Assembly: GCA_963594125.1 (NCBI GenBank) | Contig: CAVBCV010000001.1 | Span: 746-64,745, forward strand | DNA from: Lachnospiraceae bacterium | GTDB taxonomy: Bacteria > Pseudomonadota > Alphaproteobacteria > RF32 > CAG-239 | Length of the DNA: 64,000 bases | Direction of reading: 5' to 3' | Shown here: positions 1,729 through 30,158 of the stretch, one piece after another | Layout of the letters: each line of letters starts with the position of its first letter | Numbering within the stretch: position 1 is the stretch's first letter | The notes under the pieces: generated by a model | What the model saw: only the letters and a program-made list of their open reading frames with translations | What the model was told of the DNA's origin: nothing | Database searches by the model: none | Program-made: the position numbers and the translations under genes

Positions 1729-1872
1729 TAGCCTTTCATATTAAAAAACAAAAATACCGTACCATAATTTTTTGATAAAATAAAGCCAGAAAACAAAAAT
1801 ATACTTGAAATGCAAATTTTATCTTGTAGTATATTATAATAAAAAAATACACTCTATATAACAGGAAATAAA

Positions 1873-4536: not shown

Positions 4537-5507
4537 TACTCTTCCTCCCCGTTTTGATCAAAATAGGCATTAATTTCAGCAACTGCGGTTTGATAATCAT
4601 TTATCTTCATATAATTTTCGCGGAAACGTTTGGCATCGCGAAAGTTTTTAGAATACCAACACACATATTTGCGTGAGAGCGCCAACGCTAATTTTTCGCC
4701 GTAATATGCGGTTAAAAGCGATATATGCTCTAATAAGGTGTTTTTAACCTCTTGCGCAGGCTGTTTTTGCGGCAGCGCACCGGTTTTTAAATATTTTGCA
4801 ATCTCGCCGGTAAGCCACGGAGCGCCCAATGCCGCGCGCCCTATCATCACCCCATCGCAGCCGGTTTGTTTTATCATTGCCTCAGCCGATTGCGGAGAGG
4901 TTACGTCGCCATTGCCAACCACCGGAATTTTTACCGCCGACTTTACCTCTTTAATAATATTCCAATCGGCAGTGCCGGAATATCCTTGCGCGCGGGTTCT
5001 GCCATGCACGGTAATAAAATCAGCGCCGCTCGCCTCGCACATTTTAGCAAAATCTGCCGCATTAACGCTGCTATTGTCCCAACCTTTGCGAAATTTTACG
5101 CTAACCGGCAATTTTACGACGTTTTTTACGGTTTTGATAATTTTAGCGGCCTGCTCCGGATTTTTCATTAATGCCGAACCGGCGCCGCCGGTAATAATTT
5201 TGCGCACCGGACAACCCATATTTATATCTATTCCGGACGCGCCTAATTCCGCCGCCAGTTGCGCCGCATCGGCAAAGAGCGCCTCATCGGCGCCAACAAG
5301 CTGCACAATTACCGGATACGGCTCATCACGAACATCGGCAATGCGGTAAGTCTTGGCATTTTTACGCGAAAGAGCGTTAATCGCCACCATTTCTGAAATC
5401 AGCGCAACATCATTACCGCTTTTAGCGTGCACCATGCGGCGCATCGGCTTATCGGTAATTCCCGCCATCGGGGCTAAAAAAACTTGTTTGGGCAACGAAC
5501 CAGTCAT
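4536..5507 (-). CDS. dusB: tRNA-dihydrouridine synthase B, Dus/NifR3 family, 323 aa.
   Basis: The start FLAPMAGITDKPMRR and the segments VIVQLVG and NMGCP are typical of the Dus family. Confidence 0.85.
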   Translation of the reverse strand: MTGSLPKQVFLAPMAGITDKPMRRMVHAKSGNDVALISEMVAINALSRKNAKTYRIADVRDEPYPVIVQLVGADEALFADAAQLAAELGASGIDINMGCPVRKIITGGAGSALMKNPEQAAKIIKTVKNVVKLPVSVKFRKGWDNSSVNAADFAKMCEASGADFITVHGRTRAQGYSGTADWNIIKEVKSAVKIPVVGNGDVTSPQSAEAMIKQTGCDGVMIGRAALGAPWLTGEIAKYLKTGALPQKQPAQEVKNTLLEHISLLTAYYGEKLALALSRKYVCWYSKNFRDAKRFRENYMKINDYQTAVAEINAYFDQNGEEE

Positions 5508-5517
5508 TAAAGTTTGC

Positions 5518-7611
5518 CTAATTTATCCGGTCTAACGCGCGGGCGATAACGTAATATATCTTGCCGACATCGGTGTTAGAAAGCATTGCCAGCAGCAACT
5601 CAGGCTTTTCAGCATTGCGCGCCGCCGTCATTAAAGATTCAAAATCACTGATGTAACTATCGGCAATTTTGCGAAAATCGGTGTTTTTTTCGTATTCATC
5701 GCGAATTTTAACAATCTGCTTGCGGCTTAAATTTTTAACCACATAACGGGCAAAAACGCCATGATCGCCGTCATAAAACTTTTTCCAGAGTTCGTCTTCA
5801 TCTTTGTTGAACAGCTTGTTAATATCTATGGAAATATTTTCCAAGTTCTGAATTAAACCGGAAGAACGTTCCAGAAAATTATCGGTGCTTAAATCTTCAT
5901 ATTTCTGTCTGATAGCGGAAAGTTCTTGCTCAGAGTGGGCGCGGCTTTCATTTAACAACTCAACCTGCTTGTTTACCAGACTGCCAAAATCGTCTATCTG
6001 ATTTTTATAAGCGGCAAAAACAGCGGCAGAATTTTCAGCCGTGGCATTTAAGGACTTGCTGATTTGCGCAATTCTGGTTTTAACCTCTTCAATGGTGTTC
6101 AAGGCCTGAGTGATGTGCGCGCTTTGGGTTTCAAGCGTTAAAGCTCCTTCCTTGCCCTTAGCCACAATCACATTAGCGCTTTCAGTCAGCTGCGCCGTGT
6201 TTTTATTAACCTCGCCGCTCACCGCGTTAAACTTATCTATTGCCTCAACCGAACGTAATTTAAGGTCATCAACGTTTTTACCTAAATCAGCGCTAATGCC
6301 GGCAATTTTATGGGTGATTTTTTCCGCAACCGCCTGAATTTCAGTATTTTTATTTTCGGTCTTTTTGATAAAATCATTAAGCTTAGCAAGCTCTGACTCA
6401 AGATTGGTCATAATCTTGGCAATGTTTTTAACCGCTTTATCTGATTTTTGCTCCAAGCTGTTGGTGGCGCCGTCTAAAATGCGGTCAACACCGGCGCGAG
6501 CCTCATTTAAGGCGGTAAGCTGCGCTTTAACGTTGTTTTCAAGGGTTGAGGAGCGGTTAATCATCGCCTCAACTTCCAAACTGATTAAGCGACCATATTC
6601 GCCAAGCCTGCTATCAAGATATGACGAGTTTTTATCAATCAATGCCGACTGTTCAGCCGCCAGCTCTTTATGGGTTTTAAGGCTGTTTTCAATGTGCGAA
6701 ATTCCGCTGTCCAAGCGTTTGTAAATTTCTTCACACCCGTCGGCGGTCTGCAAAAAGGCTTTTTCAAGATTTTTGCCATTGCTTTCAAAAACAGTCGCCA
6801 TATCCTCAATATGCTTACGACCGGCAGCGGCAAAATTTTCAAGTTCAGCATTCGCCTCTGAAATATAGTTTTTATCTTCTTGCAAGGTGTTTTTAAGATA
6901 TTCGGCGGTTGAAACCGTTTCATTAATCAAGGGATTTAGTTCATCAGTTAAGGCGGCGGCATTAGCCTTAAGCTGCTCAGAACTTGCCGCAAAGCGTTCG
7001 GATGACTGTTCGGCAACGGCAGCAACGTTTTGGCAGGCGGCAACCAGTCCGTTTGCGGTTGCGCTTAATTTATCAAGATTGTTACCGGCAAACGCGCTGA
7101 CAGCCTCATTGATTTTAGCAAATTCTTCCGCTTTAACGTAAAGCGCAGATTTTAGCTGCTTGGTTTGTTCCGACATTTCAGCCGCGGCGGCGGTTAATGA
7201 TTTAATTTGTTTTTGCATGGCTTGCGTAATAACATCTGCAAGCATATTGTTGTTTTGCGAGCTCAAAATCTTTTTAAGGCTCTGCTCAACCAGCGAGGCT
7301 TGACTTGCCGCCAACGATGAGCGCTGCAGCCAAACCACCAGCGATACCAAAACGCCCCATGATAAAAACGCGCCAGCCAAGAAGGTTACAAATTCTGTCG
7401 GCAGCAAGGCGGTGATTCCGCTCCAACCTAAAGCAAACTGAATGTATAAAAACAACAACCCAAACCAAACCGCGGTTACAATCAAGAGCGGCTTGCGGGA
7501 ATAATGGTGTTCAGTTTGTTCCGGCTTAGCAAAGGGAATCACGTTAGAAACAGTCGGTTCTTTTTGCAAAAACTCAGGTATATCTTTATTTTCAGTGGGC
7601 ACAATATTCAT
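5518..7611 (-). CDS. Membrane-anchored long coiled-coil protein of 697 aa. It has two N-terminal TM helices followed by an apolipoprotein-like alpha-helical repeat region. Function unknown.
   Basis: Hydrophobic segments LLIVTAVWFGLLFLYIQFALGW and FLAGAFLSWGVLVSLVVWL are followed by about 500 aa rich in A/E/K/L/Q/N heptad-like sequence. Confidence 0.55.
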   Translation of the reverse strand: MNIVPTENKDIPEFLQKEPTVSNVIPFAKPEQTEHHYSRKPLLIVTAVWFGLLFLYIQFALGWSGITALLPTEFVTFLAGAFLSWGVLVSLVVWLQRSSLAASQASLVEQSLKKILSSQNNNMLADVITQAMQKQIKSLTAAAAEMSEQTKQLKSALYVKAEEFAKINEAVSAFAGNNLDKLSATANGLVAACQNVAAVAEQSSERFAASSEQLKANAAALTDELNPLINETVSTAEYLKNTLQEDKNYISEANAELENFAAAGRKHIEDMATVFESNGKNLEKAFLQTADGCEEIYKRLDSGISHIENSLKTHKELAAEQSALIDKNSSYLDSRLGEYGRLISLEVEAMINRSSTLENNVKAQLTALNEARAGVDRILDGATNSLEQKSDKAVKNIAKIMTNLESELAKLNDFIKKTENKNTEIQAVAEKITHKIAGISADLGKNVDDLKLRSVEAIDKFNAVSGEVNKNTAQLTESANVIVAKGKEGALTLETQSAHITQALNTIEEVKTRIAQISKSLNATAENSAAVFAAYKNQIDDFGSLVNKQVELLNESRAHSEQELSAIRQKYEDLSTDNFLERSSGLIQNLENISIDINKLFNKDEDELWKKFYDGDHGVFARYVVKNLSRKQIVKIRDEYEKNTDFRKIADSYISDFESLMTAARNAEKPELLLAMLSNTDVGKIYYVIARALDRIN

Positions 7612-7799
7612 ATTTTCAGACCTTAAAATTAACTATTGGCGTTTACATTATATGCTGTTTTGTTTTAATTTAAACATCAAAATAACTATCCACAGCCTTT
7701 ATATAGCAGGAAAAATAAAAAAATGCAAAAAATACAAAAAAAGTGTTGATTTTTAAAAAATGATTAGGTATGTTACTTTTCGCATGATGAATTAAACAT

Positions 7800-7874
7800 G
7801 CCGCTGTAGCTCAGTGGTAGAGCACGTCATTGGTAATGACGGGGTCGCAAGTCCGATTCTTGCCAGCGGCACCA
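7800..7874 (+). tRNA. tRNA-Thr with anticodon GGU.
   Basis: The sequence folds by hand into a cloverleaf. The acceptor arm is gccgctg/cagcggc, the D arm gctc-agtggta-gagc, the anticodon arm cgtca-ttGGTaa-tgacg, and the T arm gcaag-tccgatt-cttgc, followed by the discriminator a and an encoded CCA. Confidence 0.9.
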
Positions 7875-8906
7875 TTTATCAGTTTCAGCCGTTTTGATGA
7901 GTTCGTCAAACGGCTTATTTATTGAAAAACATAGATTTTTTCCTTCAATTTTGCAGTCCGATAAAATCAATCTCAAAATCTCTTTTTTCGTGCCAAGAAT
8001 CGGACTTTCTAGAAAAACACCAATATTTGCCGCCACTTCCGCAATATTTGCCAATATTTCATCGGTTTCCGTATCAATCTCAAGATACTTGTCCATATCT
8101 TTTTGCAGCTTTTCTTTTTCAAGCTCAATTTCAGCTTTCAGTTCATTATACATCTTTTCATCACATTTGCCTTGAATATAGCCGCGGAATAAGGCTTTTG
8201 CTTGTTCATCAAGTTCATTTATCTTGATTGTGACATTTCGTTTCAGAGCCGTTGTGTTGTTATTTTCATCTTTGAGCTGTCTTTTAACTTCAGACTTGAT
8301 ATTTCTTAACATATCGTCGCTGATGTTGATAGGTAAACAAAGCTCTTTTTCAAGTTGGGCAAGAATTTTGGCTTCATTAACCGGTTTTTGACTACATTTT
8401 GAACGGAGTTTATTACATTTAAGATAATTATAAAAATGGTTTTCATCTTTTACCTTGGTTTCACAAGTCATTAAACTTCCGCAACAGCCGCATCTCACCA
8501 TTCCGCTAAATAAATATTGCTTATCACCATAATACAATTTGCTTGGCGCGCGTTTTCGCCCTTCCATGGTCTCTTGCACAATGCGGAACAGATTTTCATC
8601 AATCAAACGCGGATAGTTATGTTTATAGGTTTTGCCTTTATTGATAAAGTATCCTATATAAAACGGATTTTTTAAGATATTTTGCACTTGCGCTCGGCTG
8701 ATGGTCTTATTAACCGTGCACATTTTGGAAGACAAGCCCAAAGTCCTTGCTAAATTTGTAATATCCTGCAAAGTGCGTCCGCCTTTGGCATATTCTTCAA
8801 AAAGTCTTATAACCTTAGGCGCTCTATCCGGATCAATCACAATATCAGCCGGCGTTGTTTTGGTTTTGGGTATATTCAGATACCCAACAGGTGATGTTTC
8901 GTGCAA
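7827..8906 (-). pseudogene. Remnant of a large serine recombinase. The recombinase domain, the zinc beta-ribbon (CGCCGSLMTCE) and the coiled-coil are present, but the N-terminal resolvase catalytic domain is missing. The 3' end reads into tRNA-Thr.
   Basis: The ORF starts at PVGY of the recombinase domain with no YxRVSTxxQ catalytic region upstream; only about 130 bp separate it from the SMR promoter. The last 16 codons (WCRWQESDLRPRHYQ) are the reverse complement of the tRNA 3' half, which is the typical att arrangement. Confidence 0.7.
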
Positions 8907-8919
8907 ATTTTAAACATTG

Positions 8920-8947
8920 TTGACACAGGATAAATACTCGCTATAAT
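8920..8947 (+). promoter_or_regulatory. Near-consensus sigma70-like promoter (TTGACA-N16-TATAAT) upstream of the SMR gene, leaving a 5' UTR of about 120 nt.
   Basis: ttgaca at 8920-8925 and tataat at 8942-8947. Confidence 0.6.
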
Positions 8948-9073
8948 GGATATTATTTTGCCGCCGGGTAAAGAGTTTGACACTATGTTTTTCTGTCATT
9001 AGGCCTTAGAAGACAGAAAGATTATAGTGTTTTTTGTTTTTAAAACCATACAAATTGAAAGAGGATTAAAATT

Positions 9074-9391
9074 ATGGCATGGATACATTTGTTAATTGCT
9101 GCAATGTTTGAAGTTGGTTGGCCGGTCGGCTTGAAAATGGCAGAAAGCTCCCCGTTTAAGCTGATGTGGCTTGGTTTTGCGGCCATTGCTATGATTTTTA
9201 GCGGTTTATTTTTGTATATGGCGCAAAAAACTATTCCCATCGGCACGGCTTATGCTGTTTGGACCGGTATCGGTGCAACCTGCACTTTTGTTGTCGGAAT
9301 ACTTTTCTTCAATGATACAGTTTCTTTAATTCGTTGTTTAGGAATTATATTTATTATTTTTGGTGTCGCCTGCTTAAAATATGGGCACTAA
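9074..9391 (+). CDS. sugE: Small multidrug resistance (SMR) family transporter, SugE/Gdx-like, 105 aa.
   Basis: The start MAWIHLLIAAMFEVGWPVGLK contains the conserved Glu in TM1, and the protein has four TM helices at the usual SMR size. Confidence 0.8.
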   Translation: MAWIHLLIAAMFEVGWPVGLKMAESSPFKLMWLGFAAIAMIFSGLFLYMAQKTIPIGTAYAVWTGIGATCTFVVGILFFNDTVSLIRCLGIIFIIFGVACLKYGH

Positions 9392-10256
9392 TCATTTATG
9401 ATTAATTTTTAAAGTTGGTATAACTAAATAAATTTGCAGATTTTTTAATTATTTTTATATAGCAAAAAAACAAATCATAAGAAAGGATTATTATCGCTTT
9501 AGGCAGTCAAAGCTCATAGTTGTGATACATCATTATAGAATTGCTTTTTTGCGGTGAAGTTGCTCGGAAATTTTCTAAATAGTGTATTTTTATTTGCAAA
9601 TTGACTTAACCTCTTGTCCTTAAGGGCGAGAAGTTGTAAATAAAAAACATATACACCAAAGGCGAACACCTATTATCTTGATTAAGTGTCATTGATGTCA
9701 CTTAATTGAATAACCTTTAACATGCCGCTGTCAAAGGTTAGGAGAAACACCTACTGAATAAGCAAGAACCTCTTTAACTCCTCGCACGTAAAGGCCTTGC
9801 TGAAATTTGAGGCGTTTTTGATTGATTGGGGCTGGAATTGGCTAAAGTGGTTAGGTCGGCGGCAATGGACTTTATACCGACTGCCGCAGTGCCTGCCGAT
9901 ATAGGACAGCTCTCATGGATAACAGGTTGAAATTTTTACTTTCGTAAAGAAAAGTGTATACTGATTCCGCTAATCAGTTGATTGCTCTGCACCTTTTGAT
10001 TTTATTCTTTTCTGCATAGACTCTGGCGTATATTTACTCAGTGCCCATAAACCAATCCAGAACATTTATGCGCTCAATACCTTTATTCTCTCCACGTCCA
10101 TAATCCAAAGTAAACTTATTTGTTAATTGTATTTAACAAAATTGAAGTTTTGCCATTTTTGTAAAATGAAGTTCAATGTATCAAATCCTATTTCAAACTA
10201 TCCTCAAACAACTTAATTTTCTGCTTAATCGCTTAAAGTATTATAATCTTGCAGGG

Positions 10257-10871
10257 TTACAATAGTTTGTGAATATCATATTCATCATAGCCTTCGTAAT
10301 AATAGCTTACATCAATGCCTTTCATAAAAACTTCGCGTTCATCAATTTTATCAGTTAGAGCATTTTTTAAAAGATGCTTTATTTCAATATCTTTAACAGG
10401 GCTTCTTTCCATTGCTGACAGATAATCATCTTTATCAATTTTATTCCAATCAACAACCCGCTGCAGCTCTTTTTTGAATATTAAATCCAGCCAAATTCTG
10501 GTAGCGCGTCCGTTTCCTTCTCGGAAAGGATGAGCGATATTCATTTCAACATATTTTTCAACAATTTCATCAAAAGTTGATTGCGGCATTTTATCAATAT
10601 GCTTTAAGGATTGCGCCAAAAACATTACCGGAGCAAATCTGAAACTGCCTTTGGATATGTTGACATCGCGCATTTTTCCGGCAAAATCATAAATATCTTC
10701 AAACAAATACTTATGAATCTGTTTTAATCCGGCAAAAGTGCCTACTTTTATTTGATTGATTTTACCACTGTCATAAAGTTTTATCGCTTTTCCTTTGCTT
10801 AGTTTTTCCTCAATCTTATTGAGCTCAATTTGACTAGTGATATTAAATTTGTTTTTTAAGACCATTTTCAA
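10257..10871 (-). CDS. fic: Fic/Doc family protein, a putative AMPylator toxin-like protein, 204 aa.
   Basis: Canonical FIC motif [12 protein letters not shown], with an upstream [21 protein letters not shown] region similar to FicT/VbhT-type Fic proteins. Confidence 0.85.
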
Positions 10872-10891
10872 TCCTTTTATCCGGTATTCTA

Positions 10892-10913
10892 AGCCTCCTT
10901 CACGGAGGCTTTT
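10892..10913. other. GC hairpin (gcctcc-ttcac-ggaggc) immediately downstream of the 547-aa ORF stop codon and 40 nt upstream of the Fic start codon. It is flanked by T5 on the + strand, so it may be an intercistronic processing or attenuation element.
   Basis: Inverted repeat seen directly in the sequence. Confidence 0.4.
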
Positions 10914-10918
10914 TAGGC

Positions 10919-12562
10919 TTATCTGCCATTCTGGCGGCGGAGGAGCATTAATTCCATACTGTTTTTGTTATCTCTCATTTGGCTAAACGATGGAGAAATT
11001 CTCGCTATCGTGTCCTGCTGTGGTCGTCCGGACAAAGATCTCAGATATGCGGCTTTGTCCATGTTGGTCTTTTCAGCGGCAGCATTTTGAGTTGCGGGCG
11101 CCGGAGTTTCAGCAACTGAATCGTTCTGAGCAGGCGACGGAGCGGCGGTTTCTGTGTTCGTGTTTTTAGAAGATGTTGACTGAGAACGCTGAGCCCCCGG
11201 TATACCGGTAATTACCGGCTTGTCTAAATCAAGAATTTCTTCATATTGAATTTCTGAAACACGTTCATTTTTTGACCATTTCGGGTAATTGTTCAAATAA
11301 TCTTTCGGCTCTTTTGGTTCGGGAGTTTTTTCCTTTTGGTTTTTTAACAAGTTAGCCATTTTATCCACACACCTTTTAGACAAACTTTTTTCTTCAAATT
11401 CCTTAACTTCTTCCGTCTTTTCAATAGGCATTTTTTCTTGCGGGTTAATCTTTAACAAAGAGTAATAATCAACCCCATTAATATTGTAAATTTGTTTTAA
11501 AGCTGCTTGATAATTTTTTTCATTTTCATTTGGTAGTAATACTCGCTCACCAGGATTTCCTAGAGCTTTATTGAGTTGTAAATTTATAGGCTTTTCTACT
11601 CGCCAATCTCGTTCTGATAGTTTGTCTTTTTGAAGCTCCATTACCTCTTTCAAATCATTAAAATATCTTTTTCGTTGTCCATCGTCCAAATCTTCTATTT
11701 TTTTTGCCTTATAATAACTAAGCGCAAAATCTGCCTGTTTTTTCATTCCATCGGCAATGTATAAGTGTTGCAATAAATTATTATATTGCTCAAAACTCAT
11801 GTTATCTTTAAATGGAAAAGCCTCTAGTTTTTCCATATGTTTAACAATAATGTCTACGTCATTTATTCTCCAATCATCCGGTACTTTCACATCTTCTTTC
11901 ATATATTGTTTAAAATTGACACCGCCGATTGTATAGGCAATGTTTAATTGTTTTTGATATTCCGCCTCATTATCCTTAAAATTTCCTTTACCATATCTCA
12001 AATAATTCTCTGTCATGTCAATATGATTCTTGAAATACCTATCGGCCCATCTATCCATCCACATTTTTTGTGTGCCGTTCATAATCAAGGACATATCTTT
12101 TTCAAAATCTTTGGGGTCAGAACTTAAGGGATTGACCTCGCCTTGTTGCACCGCCTCTTTATAAAAAGAAAACCCATGTGATCTATCAAAAACATTGACA
12201 TCGCCTGTTTTAATATATTCTTCTCTTAAATAAACCAGTTCTGCCATCTTGGCGGAGATTTCATCAGCCATACATAATTTATAATATTGTTCCGAGGAAA
12301 CACTAATGTTTTTAGACTTAAATCCTTTATTAGCATTACTACGATGCTTTTGTTCATGATAGAGGATGCAATCATGGCTATTTTTTTCAAAAAGCCACAT
12401 AAATACATCATCATCATGATAATTCATTGTTATTGTATTTGTAATAGGCGAAAAAAAACCTCCGCTATGATTTCCATACCCTGCAATCGTATCAACTTGA
12501 TAGTCAATTTTTTTCGTCCGAAAGTCGTTCGTTTGCTTTTTAAGGTCATCTGCCAAAGACAT
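10919..12562 (-). CDS. Hypothetical soluble protein of 547 aa with a single HExxH (HEQKH) motif and a low-complexity C-terminal tail rich in S/T/P/A/Q and ending in basic residues. It could be a zincin-like effector.
   Basis: Long ORF whose RBS aggagaag lies in the 22-bp gap after the upstream TerB-like gene. The sequence is YHEQKH at about residue 70, no TM segments, and a C-terminus of ...LLRRQNGR. Confidence 0.55.
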
Positions 12563-12584
12563 CTTGCTTCTCCTCTATCAAAAA

Positions 12585-13010
12585 CTATGCGCTTTCCATC
12601 ACTACCGCCGATTTTACCAACCAGGCTTTTCTTTCAAGCACCAATTCATTGATTTGCAAAACTTTTTCAGGTTCAATATTTAATTTTGCGGCAACTTTTT
12701 CAATAAAATTGACTTCTGCATCGCCTAATTCATCATCAACATGCGCCATTGTTAACAACTCACGTATCAGCGCAAGAGCTTTATGGCGGACTTTAATGAT
12801 ATTTGCAATTTCAGGAAGTAAAATATCTTCACCCATGGGAGCATTAATTTCCGCAACTTTGTTTTTGATGTTATAAATATTGACAATTTCATGGATGCAT
12901 TCGCGCTCGCGGTCATCAACACGTCCATCTGATTTTATTAAAAAAATCAGCGCGCGGACAAATGTTACTTTTTCAGACTCGCTTAATTGTTGTATATAAT
13001 CGTCTGCCAT
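12585..13010 (-). CDS. TerB-like (tellurite-resistance TerB family) domain protein, 141 aa.
   Basis: The segment KVTFVRALIFLIKSDGRVDDRERECIHEI and the overall helical composition resemble TerB or the DjlA N-terminal fold. It is the first gene of a three-gene minus-strand operon. Confidence 0.45.
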   Translation of the reverse strand: MADDYIQQLSESEKVTFVRALIFLIKSDGRVDDRERECIHEIVNIYNIKNKVAEINAPMGEDILLPEIANIIKVRHKALALIRELLTMAHVDDELGDAEVNFIEKVAAKLNIEPEKVLQINELVLERKAWLVKSAVVMESA

Positions 13011-13342
13011 TGCTATGCTCCTTTCTGATTAATATATCATAAAATTAGCATTAGTTATGTTAATATAATATTAAATTTTTATACAGCCACGCTTAGCTAT
13101 AAGCTCAATTTTCTGATTCAACAGCTTAAAATCATTAAAATTAGTCCGATAATTGCACAATAAAAGCGCACCATAAAAAGTTAAATTTACCCGCCTATCT
13201 TTAACTTTCTCAAAAAGAAAGTTAAAGATAAACCTATTACATTGAAAATTTTATTTATTGTGGTATAATGGTATTATCGTTTTAATAAGGCGGGTAATAT
13301 GGTTAAAGATAATTTTTTTATTATATAAAACAGGAAGCGAAA

Positions 13343-13948
13343 ATGTTTACAAAAGAAGAAATTCAAGAAGAACTTGATAAACAAAACTGGGAAAAACCTG
13401 AGCTGTTCTGGCAAAACCGCAAGTCTTCTGACGGCAAATATCTGTTATTCAGAGGACATGATGTTATTGATGATGCCTCCACCCAGCGCTACCAAAATGG
13501 AAACGGCAACGAGATTTCACTCATTCATGCTTCTCCCATATTTAAGGCGGTTGTTTCTCCGTGGAAATTTAAGGCAAGTAAGAATTATCAAAATTTTCCG
13601 GCTAATTTAGCTTTTGTTTCTGTTTATACCGGCGGCGCTAATAATAAATTTTATCCTGATGAAACACTGGAGTTTGTTTTAGCAGGCAAAGAAAAAGATA
13701 ACGGGGAAAGAATTGACAACATTACCAACTTTGATGAAAATAAACATTTTGAAACCGCCCTCACAAAAGAAAATAAAAAAATTGCAACATATCTGTACAA
13801 ATTTACTCAGGGCATGAACAAAGACAGCGTTATGATTGCCAAACTTGAAGATGGCTCCAAGCTCATGCGAATGCTGAAAGAAAACCAGAAACAAAAAAGC
13901 AATGCCATGTTTATGTCTATGATTCAAAACAACCAAAAAACATTATGA
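13343..13948 (+). CDS. Hypothetical protein of 201 aa, the first gene of a two-gene operon with the Rcl/metallophosphoesterase fusion.
   Basis: RBS aggaag upstream of the ATG, and a promoter-like TTGAAA-N16-TGgTATAAT at about 13242-13275. I found no recognisable motif; FRGHD and SLIHAS are too weak to call an ADP-ribosyltransferase. Confidence 0.5.
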   Translation: MFTKEEIQEELDKQNWEKPELFWQNRKSSDGKYLLFRGHDVIDDASTQRYQNGNGNEISLIHASPIFKAVVSPWKFKASKNYQNFPANLAFVSVYTGGANNKFYPDETLEFVLAGKEKDNGERIDNITNFDENKHFETALTKENKKIATYLYKFTQGMNKDSVMIAKLEDGSKLMRMLKENQKQKSNAMFMSMIQNNQKTL

Positions 13949-14004
13949 AAATCAATAATTTTGCATTAAAATTTGCTGACAGATAAAACATTATAGGAGT
14001 GTCT

Positions 14005-14979
14005 ATGATTACTTCGCCTCAAAATCTAAAAATAAAGAAAAAATCAATATATGTATTTTGCGCGGGACCGATTCAGGGCGCGCCTAATTGGCAAGTCGCA
14101 ATGCCAAACTGGCCTGATGTTACTTTTATCAATCCACGCCGCGAAAAAATCAGCGCTGATTTTGACTGGAACGAACAGGTTAAATGGGAAACAACAGGCT
14201 TACGCCTCAGTGATTTTATATTGTTTTGGATTCCGGCGGAAATTACTTCTATCGCCGGACGAGATTATGCGCAAACAACCAAAATTGAACTTATGGAAAA
14301 CTTGGTCAGAGGCAAAAACATTGTGCTTGGCATTGATCCTAAAGTACATACGCGGCATTATTTGACTTATAAATATCAGCAATATACCGGCGGACAACCG
14401 GTTTTTGATAATCTGCCGGATTGTTTGTCCGAGTTAAAAAAGCGCATTGATGCTAAAAACAAACGGCATAAAATATTTTTTACCTCAGACACGCATTTTT
14501 CATCTGAACGAGCATTTAGCCTTAGCCGTCGTCCTTTCTTTAGCGTTGAAGAAATGGACTGGTCTATGGTTGAACGATGGAATACCGCTGTTGGAATTAA
14601 TGACGATGTATACCATTTGGGCGATTTCGGTAATATTGAATTTGCGCAGTATTTAAATGGTAAAATTCATTTATTGTTAGGTAACTATGAACGCGATAAA
14701 AAATCATTAATCCCTGAAAATGTTGCGGAAATTATCAGCGATGATATTTATAAACTTAATTATCAAGACTATGAATTTTTATTAGCTCATGAGCCGGTAA
14801 AATTAAGAGAAAAAACCGAGTTTGGCTTATTCGGGCATATTCACAGCCGTCAGCCGGTTAAAAAATACGGATTAGATGTAGGGGTTGACGCTCATTATTT
14901 TACGCCCATTGATATGGAAACGGTTTTGTGGTACAAAAACGCTATTGAAAACTTTTACGACGACAATGTTTTTACATAG
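14005..14979 (+). CDS. Fusion protein of about 324 aa. The N-terminal domain resembles nucleoside 2-deoxyribosyltransferase / Rcl (DNPH1), a dNMP N-glycosidase fold. The C-terminal domain is a calcineurin-like metallophosphoesterase.
   Basis: The N-terminus IYVFCAGPIQGA parallels the Rcl motif VYFCGSIRGG. The C-terminal half carries the metallophosphoesterase motifs DTHFS, HLGDFGN, LLGNYERD and GHIH. I prefer the ATG at 14005 with RBS taggagtg over the GTG at 13999 given by the ORF track. Confidence 0.6.
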   Translation: MITSPQNLKIKKKSIYVFCAGPIQGAPNWQVAMPNWPDVTFINPRREKISADFDWNEQVKWETTGLRLSDFILFWIPAEITSIAGRDYAQTTKIELMENLVRGKNIVLGIDPKVHTRHYLTYKYQQYTGGQPVFDNLPDCLSELKKRIDAKNKRHKIFFTSDTHFSSERAFSLSRRPFFSVEEMDWSMVERWNTAVGINDDVYHLGDFGNIEFAQYLNGKIHLLLGNYERDKKSLIPENVAEIISDDIYKLNYQDYEFLLAHEPVKLREKTEFGLFGHIHSRQPVKKYGLDVGVDAHYFTPIDMETVLWYKNAIENFYDDNVFT

Positions 14980-15340
14980 TGCCACCGGATTGAACAATCT
15001 CATAATCGGCAATTTTGCCCGATTTATCAAAGCCGATGAACAAATTTGTTTCCTCAAAAGTGTAACTATCTTGAAACCACGACATAACCCAACCGATAAG
15101 CGGAATCATCCAATGGTACCTGCCCGCGCCGGATATTTTGCGATATTCATAATATTCTAAGTTGTTTTTCTGAAACACAAGGTTAGGCGTTCCAAATTTT
15201 TCTCTTACTTCAGATTTAGAAGAAACTTCCGTCATTTGGCTTTCAATTCTGACGCGGTTGTCTGCCAATTTGGTATTGCCGATAGTGGTGCTGCAAGAAC
15301 ACAGAATAATCATGGCGGCTATTAATAAAACTTTTTTCAT
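14972..15340 (-). CDS. Predicted lipoprotein of about 122 aa. Function unknown.
   Basis: Signal peptide with lipobox MKKVLLIAAMIILCSCS. The internal ATG at 15340 is preferred over the ORF-track start at 15406. Confidence 0.5.
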   Translation of the reverse strand: MKKVLLIAAMIILCSCSTTIGNTKLADNRVRIESQMTEVSSKSEVREKFGTPNLVFQKNNLEYYEYRKISGAGRYHWMIPLIGWVMSWFQDSYTFEETNLFIGFDKSGKIADYEIVQSGGTM

Positions 15341-15351
15341 ACTAACTGCTC

Positions 15352-15981
15352 CTATTGAACTTTGGCTAATCTGACAACAAAATCTTGCCCAAATTGTTTG
15401 TACCAATCATTTCTCTGATTGCCGGAAATTTCCGCCGATTTATCAATTATGCTGAAAGAATTGGCCTTAACATGCCCGTCTGCCGTTACTTCATTATCGG
15501 TTTTATTGAGCGCAAAGTGCCCGATATAAGTAATTTCTTGCGGACGTACCGTAAAGCGGATTTTGCTGTCGCCCTCATAATGCTCATCGGTTTCTACCAC
15601 GGTACGGGTCACTTGCGTGTTGCCATAGTATTCGGTTGTTGTATAAATGTATTGCAAATAAAGATTGGTTACCTCGTATGTGCCTATCGGCAACATAGCC
15701 GTATCATATTTATTGCCGCCTAAAATGGTGCTCATATAAAAAACTTCATTAGTTTTAACGTTTTTGAAAGCGATAATATCATTATAATTTACACCAAAAA
15801 AGCCATCGTCAGAAACGTTATCAGATAATGAGGTAATAACCACGCCGCGAGCGCCGCTGTTAAACAAAGCCGGACGAAATTGGCGGCTGGCGCGCAACAA
15901 ATCACTCTCATTCGGGGTTTGCGGAAAAGCGCACCCGACAACAGTCAAACAAACAATTAGCATTAAAAACAATTTACGCAT
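15352..15981 (-). CDS. Predicted lipoprotein of 209 aa. Function unknown.
   Basis: Signal peptide MRKLFLMLIVCLTVVGCAF with a lipobox Cys. Confidence 0.5.
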   Translation of the reverse strand: MRKLFLMLIVCLTVVGCAFPQTPNESDLLRASRQFRPALFNSGARGVVITSLSDNVSDDGFFGVNYNDIIAFKNVKTNEVFYMSTILGGNKYDTAMLPIGTYEVTNLYLQYIYTTTEYYGNTQVTRTVVETDEHYEGDSKIRFTVRPQEITYIGHFALNKTDNEVTADGHVKANSFSIIDKSAEISGNQRNDWYKQFGQDFVVRLAKVQ

Positions 15982-16135
15982 TGCCCACTCCTGATAAATA
16001 TCGGCATTTAAATTATTATCAAAACTCTTTATTTTAGCATATACTATAAAAACAAAATGTTATTTTCAACTACAATTTAGTATTTACCACAAATATAAAA
16101 TATATTTTTCTTGCCATATTAAGCATTTAAAAAGT

Positions 16136-17905
16136 TTATTTATTTTGTATTTGCCAGAGGTGTTGAAATTCGCCGGAAGAGGCAAGTAAATCTTTAATAG
16201 CGCCTTGCTCTGCTATTTTACCTTTATCCAAAACAATAATGCGATCCATTTCTTTCAAGGTGGAAAGTCGGTGAGCAATAGCAATGACTGTTTTATTTTT
16301 CATTAAGTTTTTCATACCTTTTTGAATATATTTTTCAGCTTGACTATCTAAAGCTGAGGTTGCCTCGTCTAAAATTAATATCGGCGAATTTTTTAAAATC
16401 GCGCGCGCAATAGCCACACGCTGCCGCTGCCCGCCGGAAAGTTTAACGCCCTTTTCTCCGACTTTGGTTTGGTATCCTTTAGGTAATTGTTTAATAAAAT
16501 CATCGGCATAGGATTTTTGCGCCGCCTTTTCAATATCAGATTGTTTGGCTTGCAATCGTCCATACGCTATATTTTGGCTCACACTGCGATGAAACAGTGA
16601 TGTATCTTGCGGAATAACGGCAATTGCCTCATGCAGGCTGTTTTGTTTGATTTTGGCTATATCTTGTCCGTCTATTAAAATTTGACCGGACTGAATATCA
16701 TACGCGCGTTGCAACAGATTAATGAGCGTGCTTTTACCACTGCCGGAAACACCGACAATCCCGACCTTTTCACCGGCATTTATGGTAAATGACAATTTGT
16801 TAAACACTTTCTTTTTTCCATAGCTGAACTTAACATTTTTAAATTCTATTTTGCCACCCTTTATTTTAAGTTTTTTGGCGTTTTTAACATCAACAACTTC
16901 ATGCTTTAGCACAAATGGCGACATAGCCGCTTGCAGAGCGCCATAGTTGGTATTTAATTCACAGATATTAACTAAAATGCCTGAAAAAGTATTCATAATT
17001 GCATCCATCAGCATTAACACTAATGTTACATCGCCAACGCTGATTTGATTTTGATACCACATCTTGATTAGCAGCAATATACTTCCAGACTCAAATAAAC
17101 ATAGCATAGCTCGTTGAATACGCAGCCCGTTATGAAACGTATTTGTAGCGGACAAACGCGCGTTTGTGCATTTATCAAATATTCTTTTTACAAAGGAAAT
17201 TTCATAATCTTCACTACCGCCTGCTTTTATGTTCAAAGAATTACTTATACTATCGGCCACCACGCCGTTAAAATCATCAAGCATATCATTAGCGTTTTTA
17301 TGTAAAGCGCGCAGTTTAAAGCTGATTTTATAAGAGGCAACAGCGGATATTGAGCCAAAAACAAAAACTAAAAGCAAAAACCACAGGCTGACCCGTCCGA
17401 TAAAATAAAAATTAAGCAAAACAAAGAAAAAGGCGCTGTAAAACCGCGAAATATTTCTATGCAATTCCGTAGTTTTGTTTGAGCAGTTAAGTGTTTTTTG
17501 TGAAAGTTGTCCGGATTTTTGCGATGAAAAATAATTTTCAGAGTGTTTGGCTAAATAATCTACCGCAAACAACTTTATTTTAGCATCCATAAAATTCCGC
17601 ACATTGTTTTCTTCAATCAGCTCGCGCACCATTCTGAAAACAGACTGCCCGACATACGCAAAAAATATCGCTATTAAAAACCACCCTGTTTTACGCCAAG
17701 AAAGCTCCTGCGGCGTAATTAAAGCAAAATACTCTATCATCTTTGAGAAAAATACCGGAACATAAACTTTAGAAATCTGCAAAGCAAACGCTAATACCAC
17801 ACCGGCAACCGCCCATTTGCGGGCACCGTATAACGCCTCCCACATAAACAACAGCGGATTTTTTGATATTTTGCGCATATTCGGGATTTTTTCAAAAGAC
17901 TTCAT
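16136..17905 (-). CDS. ABC exporter with fused permease and ATPase, MsbA/ABCB-type half transporter, 589 aa.
   Basis: Six-helix N-terminal transmembrane domain, then a nucleotide-binding domain with Walker A GVSGSGKST, the signature LSGGQRQRVAIARA and Walker B ILILDEATSALD. Confidence 0.85.
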   Translation of the reverse strand: MKSFEKIPNMRKISKNPLLFMWEALYGARKWAVAGVVLAFALQISKVYVPVFFSKMIEYFALITPQELSWRKTGWFLIAIFFAYVGQSVFRMVRELIEENNVRNFMDAKIKLFAVDYLAKHSENYFSSQKSGQLSQKTLNCSNKTTELHRNISRFYSAFFFVLLNFYFIGRVSLWFLLLVFVFGSISAVASYKISFKLRALHKNANDMLDDFNGVVADSISNSLNIKAGGSEDYEISFVKRIFDKCTNARLSATNTFHNGLRIQRAMLCLFESGSILLLIKMWYQNQISVGDVTLVLMLMDAIMNTFSGILVNICELNTNYGALQAAMSPFVLKHEVVDVKNAKKLKIKGGKIEFKNVKFSYGKKKVFNKLSFTINAGEKVGIVGVSGSGKSTLINLLQRAYDIQSGQILIDGQDIAKIKQNSLHEAIAVIPQDTSLFHRSVSQNIAYGRLQAKQSDIEKAAQKSYADDFIKQLPKGYQTKVGEKGVKLSGGQRQRVAIARAILKNSPILILDEATSALDSQAEKYIQKGMKNLMKNKTVIAIAHRLSTLKEMDRIIVLDKGKIAEQGAIKDLLASSGEFQHLWQIQNK

Positions 17906-17908
17906 AAC

Positions 17909-19672
17909 TTACCCCTCTTTTTCCAGCTGTTGCATTTTCCATAACTTAGCAAATTTACCGTTTTTCATGGCGGCAAGTTCATCAAAAGTACCGGTTTCCA
18001 TGATTTTTCCTTGTTCAATATAAATAATCCGGTCCATTTTCTTTAAAGTTGAAAGCCGGTGAGCAATAGCCATTACGGTTTGTACGCCTAACAGATTATT
18101 AATTGCCGCGGCAACCTCGCTTTCAGATTGGCTGTCAAGCGAGGAAGTCGCCTCGTCTAAAATTAAGATGGGACTATTACGCAAAACCGCGCGAGCAATG
18201 GCAATACGTTGTCTTTCACCCCCTGAAAGTTTGCAACCGCGTTCCCCGACCATTGAGTTATAGCCTTCCGGCAATTTTTTAATAAACTCATCAGCGCAAG
18301 CAGTCTGCGCGGCTTGTTTTATTTTTCGGTCAGTCGCTTTAATGCCATAAGCAATATTTTCTTTTATACTGCGCTGAAACAAAACCGTCTCTTGCGGAAT
18401 AATGGCTAAATTTCGGTGCAAACTGCTTTGCGTTACGTTTTTAATATCCTGCCCGTCTATTAAAATTTGACCGGACTGAATATCATACGCGCGTTGCAAC
18501 AAGTTAATGAGCGTGCTTTTACCGCTGCCGGAAACCCCGACAATCCCAACCTTTTCACCGCTCTTGATTTTCAGATTAAAGCCGTCAAAAATTCTGTTTT
18601 GTTCCGGATAGGCAAAACAAATGTTTTTAAATTCTATTTCAGCTTTTTTAACTTTAAGCGGTTTGGCGTTCGGGTTATCGGTAATTTCATGCGGGGTTGT
18701 AAACGGCTCTAATCCGGCTTGAACATAAGACAAACTGTTGGCGAGCCTGCGAAAATCTATACACAGTTCCATCAGCCACATAAAACCGCCGCTCAATGTT
18801 AATAAAACAAACACAATATCGCCGACCGTAATTAATGATTCACTCCATAAATAAATGGCATAAATCAACATAAACAGAGAGCACAAATATATAAAACAAC
18901 ACATGCCGGTAAAAGATGAAAACCATGCCAACATGGTCTTGGCTTTAATTTTTATGTATTGTTGCAGTAATGTTGATAAACGCTTTTTTTCATGCTCTAA
19001 ACGATTAAATTGCTTAACCAAGCGGATATTGGCAATAACATCAACCAGCCAACCGGTATATAAAGCCTCTGATTTGCTCTGCATTTTATTTAAGTGGTTA
19101 CTGGTTTGATTGGCGTAATAATTAACTAAAGTTACTACGGCAACGCATATTACAAACAATAATCCTAAGCGAGGATTGATGATTGTTAATAAAATTATTT
19201 TTACGCCGATATCGCAAAAAATTCCCCAAAACTGCGCAATAATTACGGAAAATATCGGCTGAAGAGAATTAATCTGATTGGTTTTAGTCAGTAAAGTTCC
19301 GGTTTGTTTGTTGACAATATAATTAACCGAATGCCCGAAAATATATGAAAGAGCGCGACCGTAAATACGCCTTTGCAGCGGAAAATAAAAATGTTTTTGC
19401 CGATATATATTATTTTGTTTAGGCAAAAAGATGTTAATAACATTGCAAATAAAAATGGCGGCGAAAATCCATAAAAGATTATGCAAATTTTCAGGCGTTG
19501 CCCCTTGTTTAACCCCCTCAACCATTTTGGCAAACAACCAATCTAATAAGTTGAAGACGGAAATTTCCGCAAGCACAAACAGCAAACAAATTAAAAATGT
19601 CCATTTATAAGGTATCAGACATTCATTTATGATATATTTTATTGCCGTTTTCGGAAATGGCTGCGCCTGCAT
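17909..19672 (-). CDS. ABC exporter with fused permease and ATPase, paralogous to the adjacent gene, 587 aa. The two probably form a heterodimeric exporter.
   Basis: Same architecture, with Walker A GVSGSGKST, signature LSGGERQRIAIARA and Walker B ILILDEATSSLD. It is adjacent and co-directional with the paralog. Confidence 0.85.
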   Translation of the reverse strand: MQAQPFPKTAIKYIINECLIPYKWTFLICLLFVLAEISVFNLLDWLFAKMVEGVKQGATPENLHNLLWIFAAIFICNVINIFLPKQNNIYRQKHFYFPLQRRIYGRALSYIFGHSVNYIVNKQTGTLLTKTNQINSLQPIFSVIIAQFWGIFCDIGVKIILLTIINPRLGLLFVICVAVVTLVNYYANQTSNHLNKMQSKSEALYTGWLVDVIANIRLVKQFNRLEHEKKRLSTLLQQYIKIKAKTMLAWFSSFTGMCCFIYLCSLFMLIYAIYLWSESLITVGDIVFVLLTLSGGFMWLMELCIDFRRLANSLSYVQAGLEPFTTPHEITDNPNAKPLKVKKAEIEFKNICFAYPEQNRIFDGFNLKIKSGEKVGIVGVSGSGKSTLINLLQRAYDIQSGQILIDGQDIKNVTQSSLHRNLAIIPQETVLFQRSIKENIAYGIKATDRKIKQAAQTACADEFIKKLPEGYNSMVGERGCKLSGGERQRIAIARAVLRNSPILILDEATSSLDSQSESEVAAAINNLLGVQTVMAIAHRLSTLKKMDRIIYIEQGKIMETGTFDELAAMKNGKFAKLWKMQQLEKEG

Positions 19673-22825: not shown

Positions 22826-22863
22826 AAAGCCCGACAGCAATTTTGTTATCGGGCTTTTATTTT
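22826..22863. terminator. Bidirectional intrinsic terminator hairpin (aaagcccg...cgggcttt, followed by tatttt) between convergent genes.
   Basis: An 8-bp GC-rich stem with a T-run on the + strand and an A-run/T-run on the opposite strand. It lies between the stop codons at 22820 (+) and 22866 (-). Confidence 0.55.
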
Positions 22864-22865
22864 GC

Positions 22866-29336: not shown

Positions 29337-30158
29337 TTAATTTTCCTTTAATTTTTTTAATATACGCAAAAAATCAGCCCACGCTTTTGCTTTTTGCGCG
29401 GAATTACGCAGCAAAAACGCCGGATGGAAGCTGGCTAAAGCCTGCACAACAGTTTTATCAGGCAATTTATATTCATACCATTTGCCCCGCATTTTTGAAA
29501 TAGGCTCGGCATTGTCCAAAACCGCATTAGCCGCACTGCCGCCAAGCAACAACAACACTTGCGGTTTAATTAATTCTATTTGTCTTTTCAAAAACGGCAG
29601 GCAAACGGCAACTTCGCCATCGGTCGGGGTACGGTTCCCGGGCGGACGCCATGGCAATATGTTAGTAATGTAAACGCTTTCACGGTTAACGCCGATGGCG
29701 GCAAGCATTTTATCAAGCAAATGCCCGCTGCGACCTACAAACGGAAGCCCTAACCTATCTTCATCAGCGCCGGGGGCTTCACCGACAATTAAAATTTCAG
29801 CCTGAGGATTGCCGCTGCCGAAAACCGTTGACTTGGCATTAAATTTAAGCGCACAGCCCTCAAAATTGTTTACCAACTGTTTTAACTCATCCAATGAGGT
29901 TGCTTTTTCACACAATTCGCGGGCATTTTTGCAAGCGGCAACAGAAGTTTGCGCCAATGCGCTGATAGCAGGGCGAGCCGGAGCCGCGCTCGGCGCCACT
30001 GCGGCAACAGCCGCCGGTTGCGGTTTGCTCATAAGCGATGGTTCAGCGCCGCAACTTTCCGTTACGCCGCAATCAGTATACCAATTAAGCACGCTTGTTA
30101 TGTCAAAATTTTGTTCCATGGCATAAATTATATTGCGCAAATACTTTTTTTGCAACAT
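29337..30158 (-). CDS. udg: Uracil-DNA glycosylase family 4 protein with an N-terminal extension of about 100 aa, 273 aa.
   Basis: The motif [30 protein letters not shown] (GEAPG, FVGRSG) and a C-terminal HPA/HPS region. Confidence 0.75.

Follow-up and report, generated by a model that had tools for sequence, protein, structure and literature searches.

A putative array of small cassettes docked by large serine recombinases at a tRNA-Thr gene, preserved as a decayed copy in an alphaproteobacterial genome

Background

Several engines are known to swap accessory genes among bacteria, among them integrons, which depend on a tyrosine recombinase, staphylococcal cassette chromosome (SCC) elements, which use serine recombinases at rlmH, and tRNA-associated islands, which are driven by tyrosine integrases. 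How defence and other accessory genes accumulate and are exchanged is a central question of bacterial genome plasticity. Here we analyze a stretch of 64,000 nucleotides (nt), hereafter “the window”, from a genome deposited as Lachnospiraceae bacterium and placed by GTDB in the alphaproteobacterial group CAG-239 (assembly GCA_963594125.1, contig CAVBCV010000001.1, positions 746 to 64,745), in which a tRNA-Thr(GGT) gene overlaps the remnant of a large serine recombinase gene and is followed by a run of accessory genes. From sequence comparisons, we put a probability of roughly 80% on the reading that positions 7875 to ~14970 are the decayed end of a cassette array built by large serine recombinases at the 3' end of this tRNA gene. 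The locus suggests a further engine, in which a serine recombinase docks at a tRNA gene and stacks very small cassettes.

The closest described systems each share part of this arrangement. In staphylococci and enterococci, SCC elements (SCC/SCCmec, with CcrAB or CcrC at rlmH) also place a large serine recombinase at the 3' end of a conserved housekeeping gene, and they likewise form tandem units with short att repeats, some of them without a recombinase gene, and carry defence-type cargo (PMC11470126; PMC6222049). Their target, however, is rlmH (orfX); here, all loci that extend to the end of the array have tRNA-Thr(GGT) as the target. The recombinases are only distantly related, with a score of 45 bits against a cutoff of 700 for the NCBIfam CcrA equivalog and 29% identity to the best Ccr-annotated match. 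Units are far smaller here (median interval 1.26 kb among the matches listed), and the recombinase reading frame crosses the att site, each unit carrying a tail of ~30 codons.

Tycheposons of Prochlorococcus resemble the present arrays in their tRNA targets, in tandem arrays that push older elements outward, in degraded integrases and in islands of cargo, but 910 of 937 use tyrosine recombinases and their arrays are marked by partial copies of the tRNA (10.1101/2020.12.28.424599); here, the shared sequence is a 6-8 bp core and a displaced 8-mer only, and host and unit size differ as well. Sedentary chromosomal integrons, seen as biobanks of defence genes, have a fixed insertion point, cassettes of ~1 kb that each bring their own recombination site, a shuffled order and small, single-gene, defence-type cargo (10.1101/2024.07.02.601686), as do the arrays described below. 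Integrons, on the other hand, are defined by the tyrosine recombinase IntI, attI, folded single-stranded attC sites, a common promoter (Pc) and one cassette orientation, whereas the arrays sampled here carry the serine-recombinase family only, with no IntI, and their sites look like double-stranded attP half-sites even though a hairpin flanks the core.

Two further precedents concern the integration site itself. In phage Mx8, attP lies inside the integrase gene intP, and integration swaps the 3' end of the gene and alters the protein's C-terminus (PMC6070905; PMC4383910), much as here, although Int is the tyrosine recombinase of a complete phage. Islander-type tRNA islands likewise combine variable cargo with an integrase gene that adjoins a terminal tRNA gene, but their integrases are of the tyrosine type and a displaced piece of the tRNA remains as a direct repeat, neither of which we find at this locus. 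According to the Islander paper, no serine recombinase was known to use tRNA genes as targets (PMC4383910), and we found no description of this docking system in the literature that we searched, coverage of which is incomplete. The system appears to be SCC-like, tycheposon-like or integron-like accretion in a new form. If this is true, it would offer a way to mine compact defence genes (e.g., the TerB-like/HExxH pair, or the 201-aa gene with its Rcl-phosphoesterase fusion; aa, amino acids), a natural serine integrase whose attB and attP sites are short and defined, and an integrase whose C-terminus is rewritten at each insertion. For the window itself the message is modest, as it holds a frozen, partly scrambled copy of such an array.

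Results and discussion

Joins at the 3' end of tRNA-Thr(GGT)

Homology between the window and its relatives changes abruptly at the tRNA gene. Four contigs with ~89% nucleotide identity (L001-L004) are collinear with the window from trkA to the tRNA and show no similarity beyond 7876, 2 nt past the tRNA; the closest relatives (89-95% nucleotide identity) carry other genes to its right. A second recombinase 3' end, found in L011, L016-18 and L020-23, is homologous to the window from the opposite side, and there homology ends at 7869. The first set of loci loses homology at 7876 and the second at 7869, so the crossover must fall inside the 8-bp GCACCATT (AATGGTGC on the recombinase strand), and the core shared by the joined sequences is just 6-8 bp long.

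The sister strain L011, which has 95% nucleotide identity to the window over a 5.7-kb flank, carries an intact 526-aa recombinase gene at the same position. At the far end of its element lies a second copy of the last 111 nt of that gene, 99% identical to window positions 7979-7869. After ...AAATGGTGC this copy continues with GCGATATTGTGCAATTATCGGACT... and no tRNA, and the frame stays open for 29 codons more (AILCNYRTKNYEEFKQLTRKMALFEDSLE). Among the matches listed, tRNA-Thr(GGT) stands at the array end in the expected orientation in every locus that reaches this end, including 22 metagenome loci, which are all of those that reach a tRNA. The hairpin and T-rich run just beyond the tRNA (Table 1) are probably a tRNA terminator supplied by the inserted unit.

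An initial annotation of the window, made by a model from the letters alone, had named the tRNA gene as a target of site-specific integration, and the joins at its 3' end agree with this. It had also read the overlap of the recombinase remnant with the tRNA 3' half as the classic footprint of such events and proposed a search for a direct repeat of the tRNA 3' end of 15 bp or more, and this part fails: no repeat of that length occurs in 9.4-16.1 kb (18-mer and 32-mer queries, up to 3 mismatches). The footprint argument follows the logic of tyrosine integrases; with a core of 6-8 bp, a search for 15-bp repeats fails, and the far-end site at 13099-13179 is instead of the attP half-site type. A single 15/18 match to the tRNA 3' end at 29926-29943 lies inside a gene, 22 kb off, and was treated as chance.

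Short GC-rich sequence sits between some arrays and the tRNA in other loci. The window has no copy of this module of ~175 nt (L002 2596-2776; L017 5761-5948 and 6912-7100; L026/L027 near the tRNA), which folds strongly (z ~-4.5) and has in front of it a core fused to a short stretch that repeats the tRNA 3' end (16 nt in L002, CTTGCCAGCGGCACCA); the L002 stretch has no match in Rfam.

A repeat family with the anatomy of attP half-sites

The far end of a unit is marked by a repeat of ~95 nt, of which the window has one full copy (13099-13179) and one partial copy (10191-10253), and several related loci have 2-4 copies each, in each case on the strand facing the tRNA. Searches with nhmmer used a profile made from the first copies (E 1e-12 to 1e-26), and a scan of metagenome contigs with an 18-base pattern listed at least 120 matches, of which the 75 confirmed by the profile were used. 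Counts of loci, sites and intervals given here combine the related loci with these listed metagenome matches, and totals are lower bounds. Repeat sites occur in at least 97 loci; at least 50 of these have two or more, and in none of the 50 do the sites differ in strand. Between neighbouring sites there are 72 intervals, with a median length of 1259 bp and an interquartile range of 921-1778 bp (among the matches listed).

Read on the recombinase strand, a junction consists of a recombinase 3' end or a short hairpin arm, then (A)AATGGTGC, GCG, 12-13 nt, TATCGGACT and a tail of ~60 nt. TGGTGC and ATCGGACT are 11 nt apart in the tRNA, whereas 81 of the 89 unique repeats have a spacer of 16 nt between them. 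With the end of TGGTGC as the reference, the shared 9-mer falls at positions 16-24 of the repeat and 11-19 of the tRNA. A Listeria serine integrase has its zinc-ribbon-domain motif at the same places in its attP and attB half-sites, respectively (PMC3783163). The 5-bp shift thus matches the published rule with the repeat as attP type and the tRNA T-arm as attB type. This is strong indirect evidence that the repeat is a putative attP-type half-site, and the T-arm a putative attB-type half-site, of this recombinase family; the chromosomal attB-type half-site would comprise the T-arm and the 3' strand of the acceptor stem. The motif is visible on one arm only of each site.

The arm on the side of the core opposite the tail always folds: its 45 nt next to the core have a mean of -11.2 kcal/mol versus -4.2 for shuffles, and reach -8 or lower in 81% versus 6%. 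On the other side, the recombinase frame is open for at least 25 codons of the tail in 74 of 94 unique sites, versus 26 and 8 for the other frames; column entropy by codon position is 1.24, 1.01 and 1.47, and substitutions are conservative. The tail behaves as coding sequence.

A partly coding repeat flanked by terminator-like hairpins could also be something other than a recombination site, namely a gene-end or terminator module, or a leftover of C-terminal coding sequence, spread by homologous recombination with the tRNA gene as a generic hotspot. We find this highly improbable. Loci cease to be homologous to one another precisely at the 6-8 bp core, and two sequence blocks are common to the repeat and the tRNA, offset by 5 bp as is typical of attP and attB in serine integrases. 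The association with strand and tRNA is strict, and the recombinase gene is physically joined to the core (in all but one of the remnants).

One junction departs from the pattern: at L003 855-940, the P arm of a repeat is fused to the tRNA at ATCGGACT, the tRNA 3' end is destroyed and ARAGORN calls no tRNA. Either a microhomology deletion truly took place here, or the contig is an assembly chimera.

The recombinase and a reading frame that crosses the join

The 359-aa open reading frame (ORF) beside the tRNA matches Recombinase (PF07508, E 2.6e-12) and Zn_ribbon_recom (PF13408, E 4.1e-8), both above the Pfam cutoffs, and Pfam finds no resolvase domain (PF00239) in it. It aligns at 96% identity to residues 172-526 of P0001, a 526-aa protein of the type encoded intact at the same locus in the sister strain, the catalytic residues 1-171 being deleted. 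P0001 is the best match in a protein search, in which relatives of 514-548 aa carry PF00239. Judged by these alignments, the window gene is the remnant of a member of a large serine recombinase family, without its catalytic domain, as the initial annotation had proposed. The N-terminal part is absent from the rest of the 64-kb window, which excludes an inversion that moved it away.

Positions 8894-7875 of the remnant correspond to residues 172-513. Its overlap with the tRNA (7827-7874) comprises 15 sense codons and the stop codon (7829-7827): the W and C codons at 7874-7869 are the only ones of the overlap that lie within the shared core, and the 13 codons at 7868-7830 are host tRNA sequence fused to the frame. 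Two forms of the protein exist in databases, one of 526 aa that ends in the tRNA-encoded RWQESDLRPRHYQ and one of 545-548 aa that ends in the repeat tail, with P0012 and P0022 as full-length examples of the latter. The recombinase frame therefore crosses the join, with 13 tRNA codons beside the tRNA and ~30 conserved codons at the far end of the element. Of the 11 full-length copies in the collected loci, 3 adjoin the tRNA and 6 connect to a repeat; one more borders a variant tRNA sequence, and the last is truncated by a contig end. Remnants number at least 19; they start at residues that range from 162 to 483, and all but one (L047) retain the core-side 3' end. In P0040, P0058 and P0071, a cargo gene and a recombinase fragment are fused in frame.

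Remnants in L047 (~2050) and L051 (~8470) have the same start codon (~residue 162) and differing upstream DNA, and the window remnant starts (8894) ten codons later. Breakage may have recurred where the catalytic domain ends.

Recombinase 3' ends and recombinase-free arms also share an inverted pair of the 8-mer found in the att half-sites. It occurs with a spacing of 45±1 nt in 38 of 117 unique junctions (the chance of one 7-mer per 200 nt is ~0.005), at 63-66 nt from the core in recombinase-free arms and at 87 nt in recombinase 3' ends. The size of the pair fits a symmetric attP-like site, yet no joins fall there; as the true crossover, the window pair at 7955-8006 was rejected, with homology breakpoints ~80 nt away at the core.

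PHROGs places the recombinase with integrases (phrog_95, E 7.5e-62), and a search of PDB sequences with the intact protein returned spurious RecA matches only. The PHROGs class, together with distant relatives (35% identity) on small 'Bacteriophage sp.' faecal contigs, would suit the remnant of a prophage or phage satellite, which we consider the least probable of the explanations weighed here: neither the window island nor the intact L011, L012 and L030 have genes for structure, packaging or lysis, and the one match of the repeat pattern in IMG/VR is unconfirmed by the profile. The closest recombinases in annotated collections (32-35% identity) belong to two phage-collection records, MT837677.1 (6.4 kb) and MT836653.1 (9.3 kb), both unannotated 'Bacteriophage sp.' contigs from human faeces, which may be small circular relatives of these elements.

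Limits and composition of the island in the window

Compared with related sequences, the variable array of the window extends from 7875 to ~14970 (7.1 kb), close to the 7-8 kb first estimated, and the features found in it are listed in Table 1. Its right limit is drawn from eleven loci of other species that share the lipoprotein gene pair (L020-L029 and L031; 80-83% nucleotide and ~87% aa identity), in which homology to the window ends at 14969/14970, the end of the second lipoprotein gene. Beyond the pair each has a different array, with cassettes or recombinase remnants of its own. The pair may be a conserved outer flank or an old fixed cassette.

Table 1 Features of the tRNA-Thr(GGT) locus and the adjoining island (window coordinates)
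Feature	Position	Strand	Basis or remark
tRNA-Thr(GGT)	7800-7874	+	ARAGORN; Rfam RF00005, 70.9 bits
Large serine recombinase remnant, 359 aa	7827-8906	-	Pfam domains; alignment to P0001
AGTCCGATT (reverse complement of AATCGGACT)	7850-7858	+	Candidate zinc-ribbon-domain motif; nt 11-19 from the TGGTGC end, the attB-type position
Common core GCACCATT (AATGGTGC on recombinase strand)	7869-7876		Homology breakpoints and junction sequences
Hairpin, then T-rich run	7887-7915	+	Directly 3' of tRNA, within recombinase 3' coding region; read from sequence
Inverted 8-mer pair, 52 bp, AGTCCGAT-N36-ATCGGACT	7955-8006		Accessory element; same 8-mer as att half-sites
Sigma-70 promoter, 12/12 consensus	8920-8947	+	Ahead of SMR gene
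SMR efflux gene	9074-9391	+	PF00893
ORF-free tract	9392-10256		No Rfam family match
Upstream-region relic	9441-9739		Non-coding region found upstream of intact recombinase genes; inverted relative to remnant
Palindrome AACCTCTTGTCCTTAAGGGCGAGAAGTT	9608-9635		Within the relic in the ORF-free tract
Tail-only partial repeat	10191-10253	-	Directly after Fic stop codon; tblastn and blastn
Class-III (NmFic-type) Fic AMP-transferase	10257-10871	-	PF02661; NF046029; PADLOC PDC-S04
547-aa protein with HExxH motif (HEQKH)	10919-12562	-	
TerB-like 141-aa protein, first of three-gene run	12585-13010	-	PF05099, E 5e-9; DUF533
Full far-end repeat, attP-type P arm and tail	13099-13179	-	nhmmer E 2.9e-12, 9.8e-12
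Long hairpin beside core	13175-13247		Inner arm of next unit
Promoter for 201-aa gene, 11/12	13242-13269		
201-aa protein	13343-13948	+	Single-gene cassette between two repeats in L005, 75% aa identity
Nucleoside-2-deoxyribosyltransferase (Rcl)-like/metallophosphoesterase fusion	13999-14979	+	PF15891; phrog_547, E 2.8e-35
Two lipoprotein genes	14972-15981	-	

On sequence grounds, the island is a set of at least three former units fused by deletions, with internal sites lost, and these units would be unable to move independently. One comprises the recombinase relic and the SMR gene, another the TerB-like, HExxH and Fic genes, and a further one, which is a second or third unit, the 201-aa gene and the Rcl-phosphoesterase fusion. 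The sole well-defined internal boundary is the core GCACCA at 13168-13173 (+). It belongs to the full repeat, which reads ATGGTGC, a 17-nt spacer, ATCGGACT and the tail on the minus strand, has a 22-nt exact match to L011 and marks the outer end of the tRNA-proximal unit or units. The hairpin on the other side of this core is homologous to one in L016-18 that follows a tail there. A relaxed profile scan of the whole window yields no credible repeat apart from this copy, the tail-only piece and the junction at the tRNA, and hence no outer site for the 201-aa/Rcl unit.

Several genes of the island recur elsewhere as array members. Fic stands alone as a bounded cassette in L016 (92% aa identity), where the arrangement of Fic and tail-only repeat is also found (8680-9391; 85% nucleotide identity; nhmmer E 3.7e-13 there), and the same array holds an SMR homologue (86% aa identity). 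Fic scores 315.6 bits against the NCBIfam NmFic equivalog NF046029 (cutoff 230) and matches PADLOC PDC-S04 (PDLC04842) over residues 3-202 (E 1.6e-105), and is a candidate member of a single-gene defence family. The TerB-like protein has a weak match to BnzA. Its 547-aa neighbour has no match in Pfam, NCBIfam, PADLOC, PHROGs or PDB sequences and a weak relative in L007 (28% over 159 aa). Sequence and profile searches give no family and no solved relatives for the 201-aa protein, and exact-sequence look-ups of this protein and of the window's HydE-like protein find neither on record.

The non-coding stretch that precedes intact recombinase genes survives as a relic in the ORF-free tract, where 151 nt are 92% identical to L011 9188-9336. 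Compared with L011, the relic is inverted relative to the remnant, the 5' part of the recombinase gene being lost; a palindromic site accounts for part of an apparent conflict of orientation with L012. Ahead of intact recombinase genes there is a conserved palindrome of 28 bp, AACCTnTTGTCCTTAAGGnCnnGAAGTT (L012 8843-8870 and 9816-9843; L030 5320-5347; L031 2038-2065). It is probably an operator, of which the window retains one relic copy. An Rfam scan of 7000-17000 (E <= 1) finds the tRNA only, with no riboswitch before the SMR gene and no known RNA in the ORF-free tract.

These results modify the initial annotation, which had described one accessory island. Much of its inventory holds: dusB and trkA lie left of the tRNA, the recombinase gene overlaps the tRNA gene by 15 codons and the stop codon, and the SMR pump with its consensus promoter, the TerB-like, HExxH, Fic and 201-aa genes and the Rcl/phosphoesterase fusion are all present. 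DNA to the right is accessory, close relatives losing homology 2 nt after the tRNA and carrying other genes; the refuting condition that had been set, conserved core content at this locus in relatives, was not borne out, L011 having different genes there. What does not hold is the inclusion of the lipoprotein genes as cargo, since they are conserved beside arrays in more than 10 loci of other species, and the unity of the island.

A single element of 7-8 kb, inserted in one event with cargo up to the ABC exporter genes and an integrase that has since decayed, would account for the one recombinase remnant adjoining the tRNA and for the low GC content across 7.5-16 kb. It is nonetheless improbable: it would contain an attP-type site (13099-13179) and part of another (10191-10253), other genomes have the Fic and 201-aa genes as cassettes with bounds of their own, the L016 array holds an SMR homologue, and the lipoprotein pair is conserved across species beside unrelated arrays. 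The idea that the element is fixed in place stands as far as a recombinase from within the window is concerned. Movement by a recombinase supplied from elsewhere may still occur, as the tRNA-side site looks intact and the far-end site is near-consensus. As for the suspected defence module, some of the cargo resembles defence genes, PDC-S04 Fic among them, and the suggestion holds to that extent.

Cassettes and cargo in related arrays

The arrays sampled come from gut and rumen Alphaproteobacteria that are abundant but uncultured. Their inter-site intervals hold 100 ORFs in 58 clusters, 66 of the 100 running away from the tRNA (among the matches listed). The same cassettes recur with the same boundaries at different ranks and behind different neighbours. 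A Ham1-like 198-aa gene, for instance, is beside the tRNA in two loci and second in L043, L089, L134 and L063 (in the last behind a 9.9-kb unit), and a pair of genes for 95 aa and 101 aa stands behind four different proximal units. Defence-type matches among the cargo include SoFic, PDC-S04, PDC-S13, Uzume, PD-T4-3, NERD nucleases, a PLD nuclease, and HNH and GIY-YIG proteins; Ham1, APH, SMR and YgjV are of other kinds. Some cassettes have their own promoters. In L016 (5900-11300), a HydE homologue has repeats on both sides, which places a housekeeping-looking gene inside an array.

Units that bear a recombinase gene are larger (7-11 kb) and carry multi-gene systems. That of L011 holds HamA and a helicase (Hachiman), an EcoO109I-type restriction enzyme with its methylase, an HNH protein and an HTH/M78 pair. 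L030 (8.5 kb) is probably a circular form of the element, judging from a 20-nt overlap of its ends and a 335-aa ORF that closes across the join. Recombinase 3' ends are 97-99% identical to the window in species in which HydE is just 66% identical at the aa level, which indicates recent transfer between species.

How the arrays may grow

We propose that a circular unit, made up of an inner arm with hairpin, the core, a P arm with tail and the cargo, would recombine with the tRNA site. The new unit would land beside the tRNA, give it a terminator hairpin and displace older units outward, and units without a recombinase gene would be moved by a recombinase encoded elsewhere. Canonical serine integrases recombine attP with attB only. 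Under this rule, stacking needs interchangeable inner arms, so that the occupied tRNA site, formally attL, stays attB-like. One type of inner arm is found beside the tRNA in L005 and beside repeats in L007 and L012, which is consistent with interchangeable arms and is not proof of them.

A stronger version, which we advance tentatively and at somewhat less than even odds, makes the system a serine-recombinase counterpart of the integron, in which a resident enzyme captures recombinase-free, attP-like cassettes of ~1 kb at the tRNA-Thr 3' end. With equivalent inner arms, each insertion would regenerate an attB-type site at the tRNA and leave an attP-type site behind it, and capture and loss would both be attB x attP reactions that require no directionality factor. 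Each cassette would also give the adjoining recombinase gene a C-terminal tail of ~30 codons, which could tune the enzyme by what lies downstream.

The main rival is accretion followed by erosion, as in tandem arrays of tycheposons or SCC: all units would have entered as full, recombinase-bearing elements, short units would be leftovers of deletion, and recombinase-free cassettes would never move as units. Several observations favour it. The 19 or more remnants are cut at many different points, deletions have made the in-frame cargo fusions P0040, P0058 and P0071, recombinase-free inner arms keep degenerate pieces of recombinase 3' ends (the inverted 8-mer pair), and deletions fuse the units of the window itself. 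As the whole account, however, we judge it unlikely: the same short cassettes occur with the same boundaries among varied neighbours and ranks, intervals cluster closely around ~1.3 kb, units without a recombinase gene also conserve the tail frame, and in L031 a recombinase-free unit lies between an intact recombinase gene and the tRNA.

A number of observations weigh against the reading of 7875 to ~14970 as the end of a recombinase-built cassette array, or against parts of it. Stacking on an occupied tRNA site is itself inferred and needs interchangeable inner arms, and the inner arms have just ~10 nt and a hairpin in common. In the window, the far-end site belongs to a minority class (17-nt spacer, 4 of 89; core ATGGTGC), and with the outer repeat of the 201-aa/Rcl unit missing, the right limit at 14970 rests on homology breakpoints. 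In L031, a repeat directly upstream of the lipoprotein pair and a tRNA-Thr 0.9 kb downstream make the status of the pair ambiguous. Circularity of L030 rests on the 20-nt overlap, which is followed by a poly-G end. Finally, ~40% of the listed metagenome pattern matches are due to chance and were filtered by the profile (45 of 120 unconfirmed, about the chance level for an assumed collection of about a trillion bases), and a few junctions, such as that of L003, could be assembly chimeras, as many contigs are metagenomic.

Neighbouring genes

Outside the island, the closest relative with data on the right side (L014) shares HydG through the first ABC exporter gene with the window. The ABC exporter pair (16136-19672) lies between an MGMT-like gene and the lipoprotein pair, which adjoin each other in L020-L025, and the first exporter gene has 93% nucleotide identity in L014 versus 86% for its neighbours; the pair may be another acquired block. 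L014 has an extra 454-aa gene (5153-6649) between HydG and a DUF7424 gene that the window does not have at the corresponding place (22858-22864). To the left, a gene for a 433-aa membrane protein (1747-3173; weak DUF2628 match, GC 0.31) is precisely absent from five related contigs, in which trkA joins a Phage_30_3-like gene directly; this gene is a separate, strain-specific insertion.

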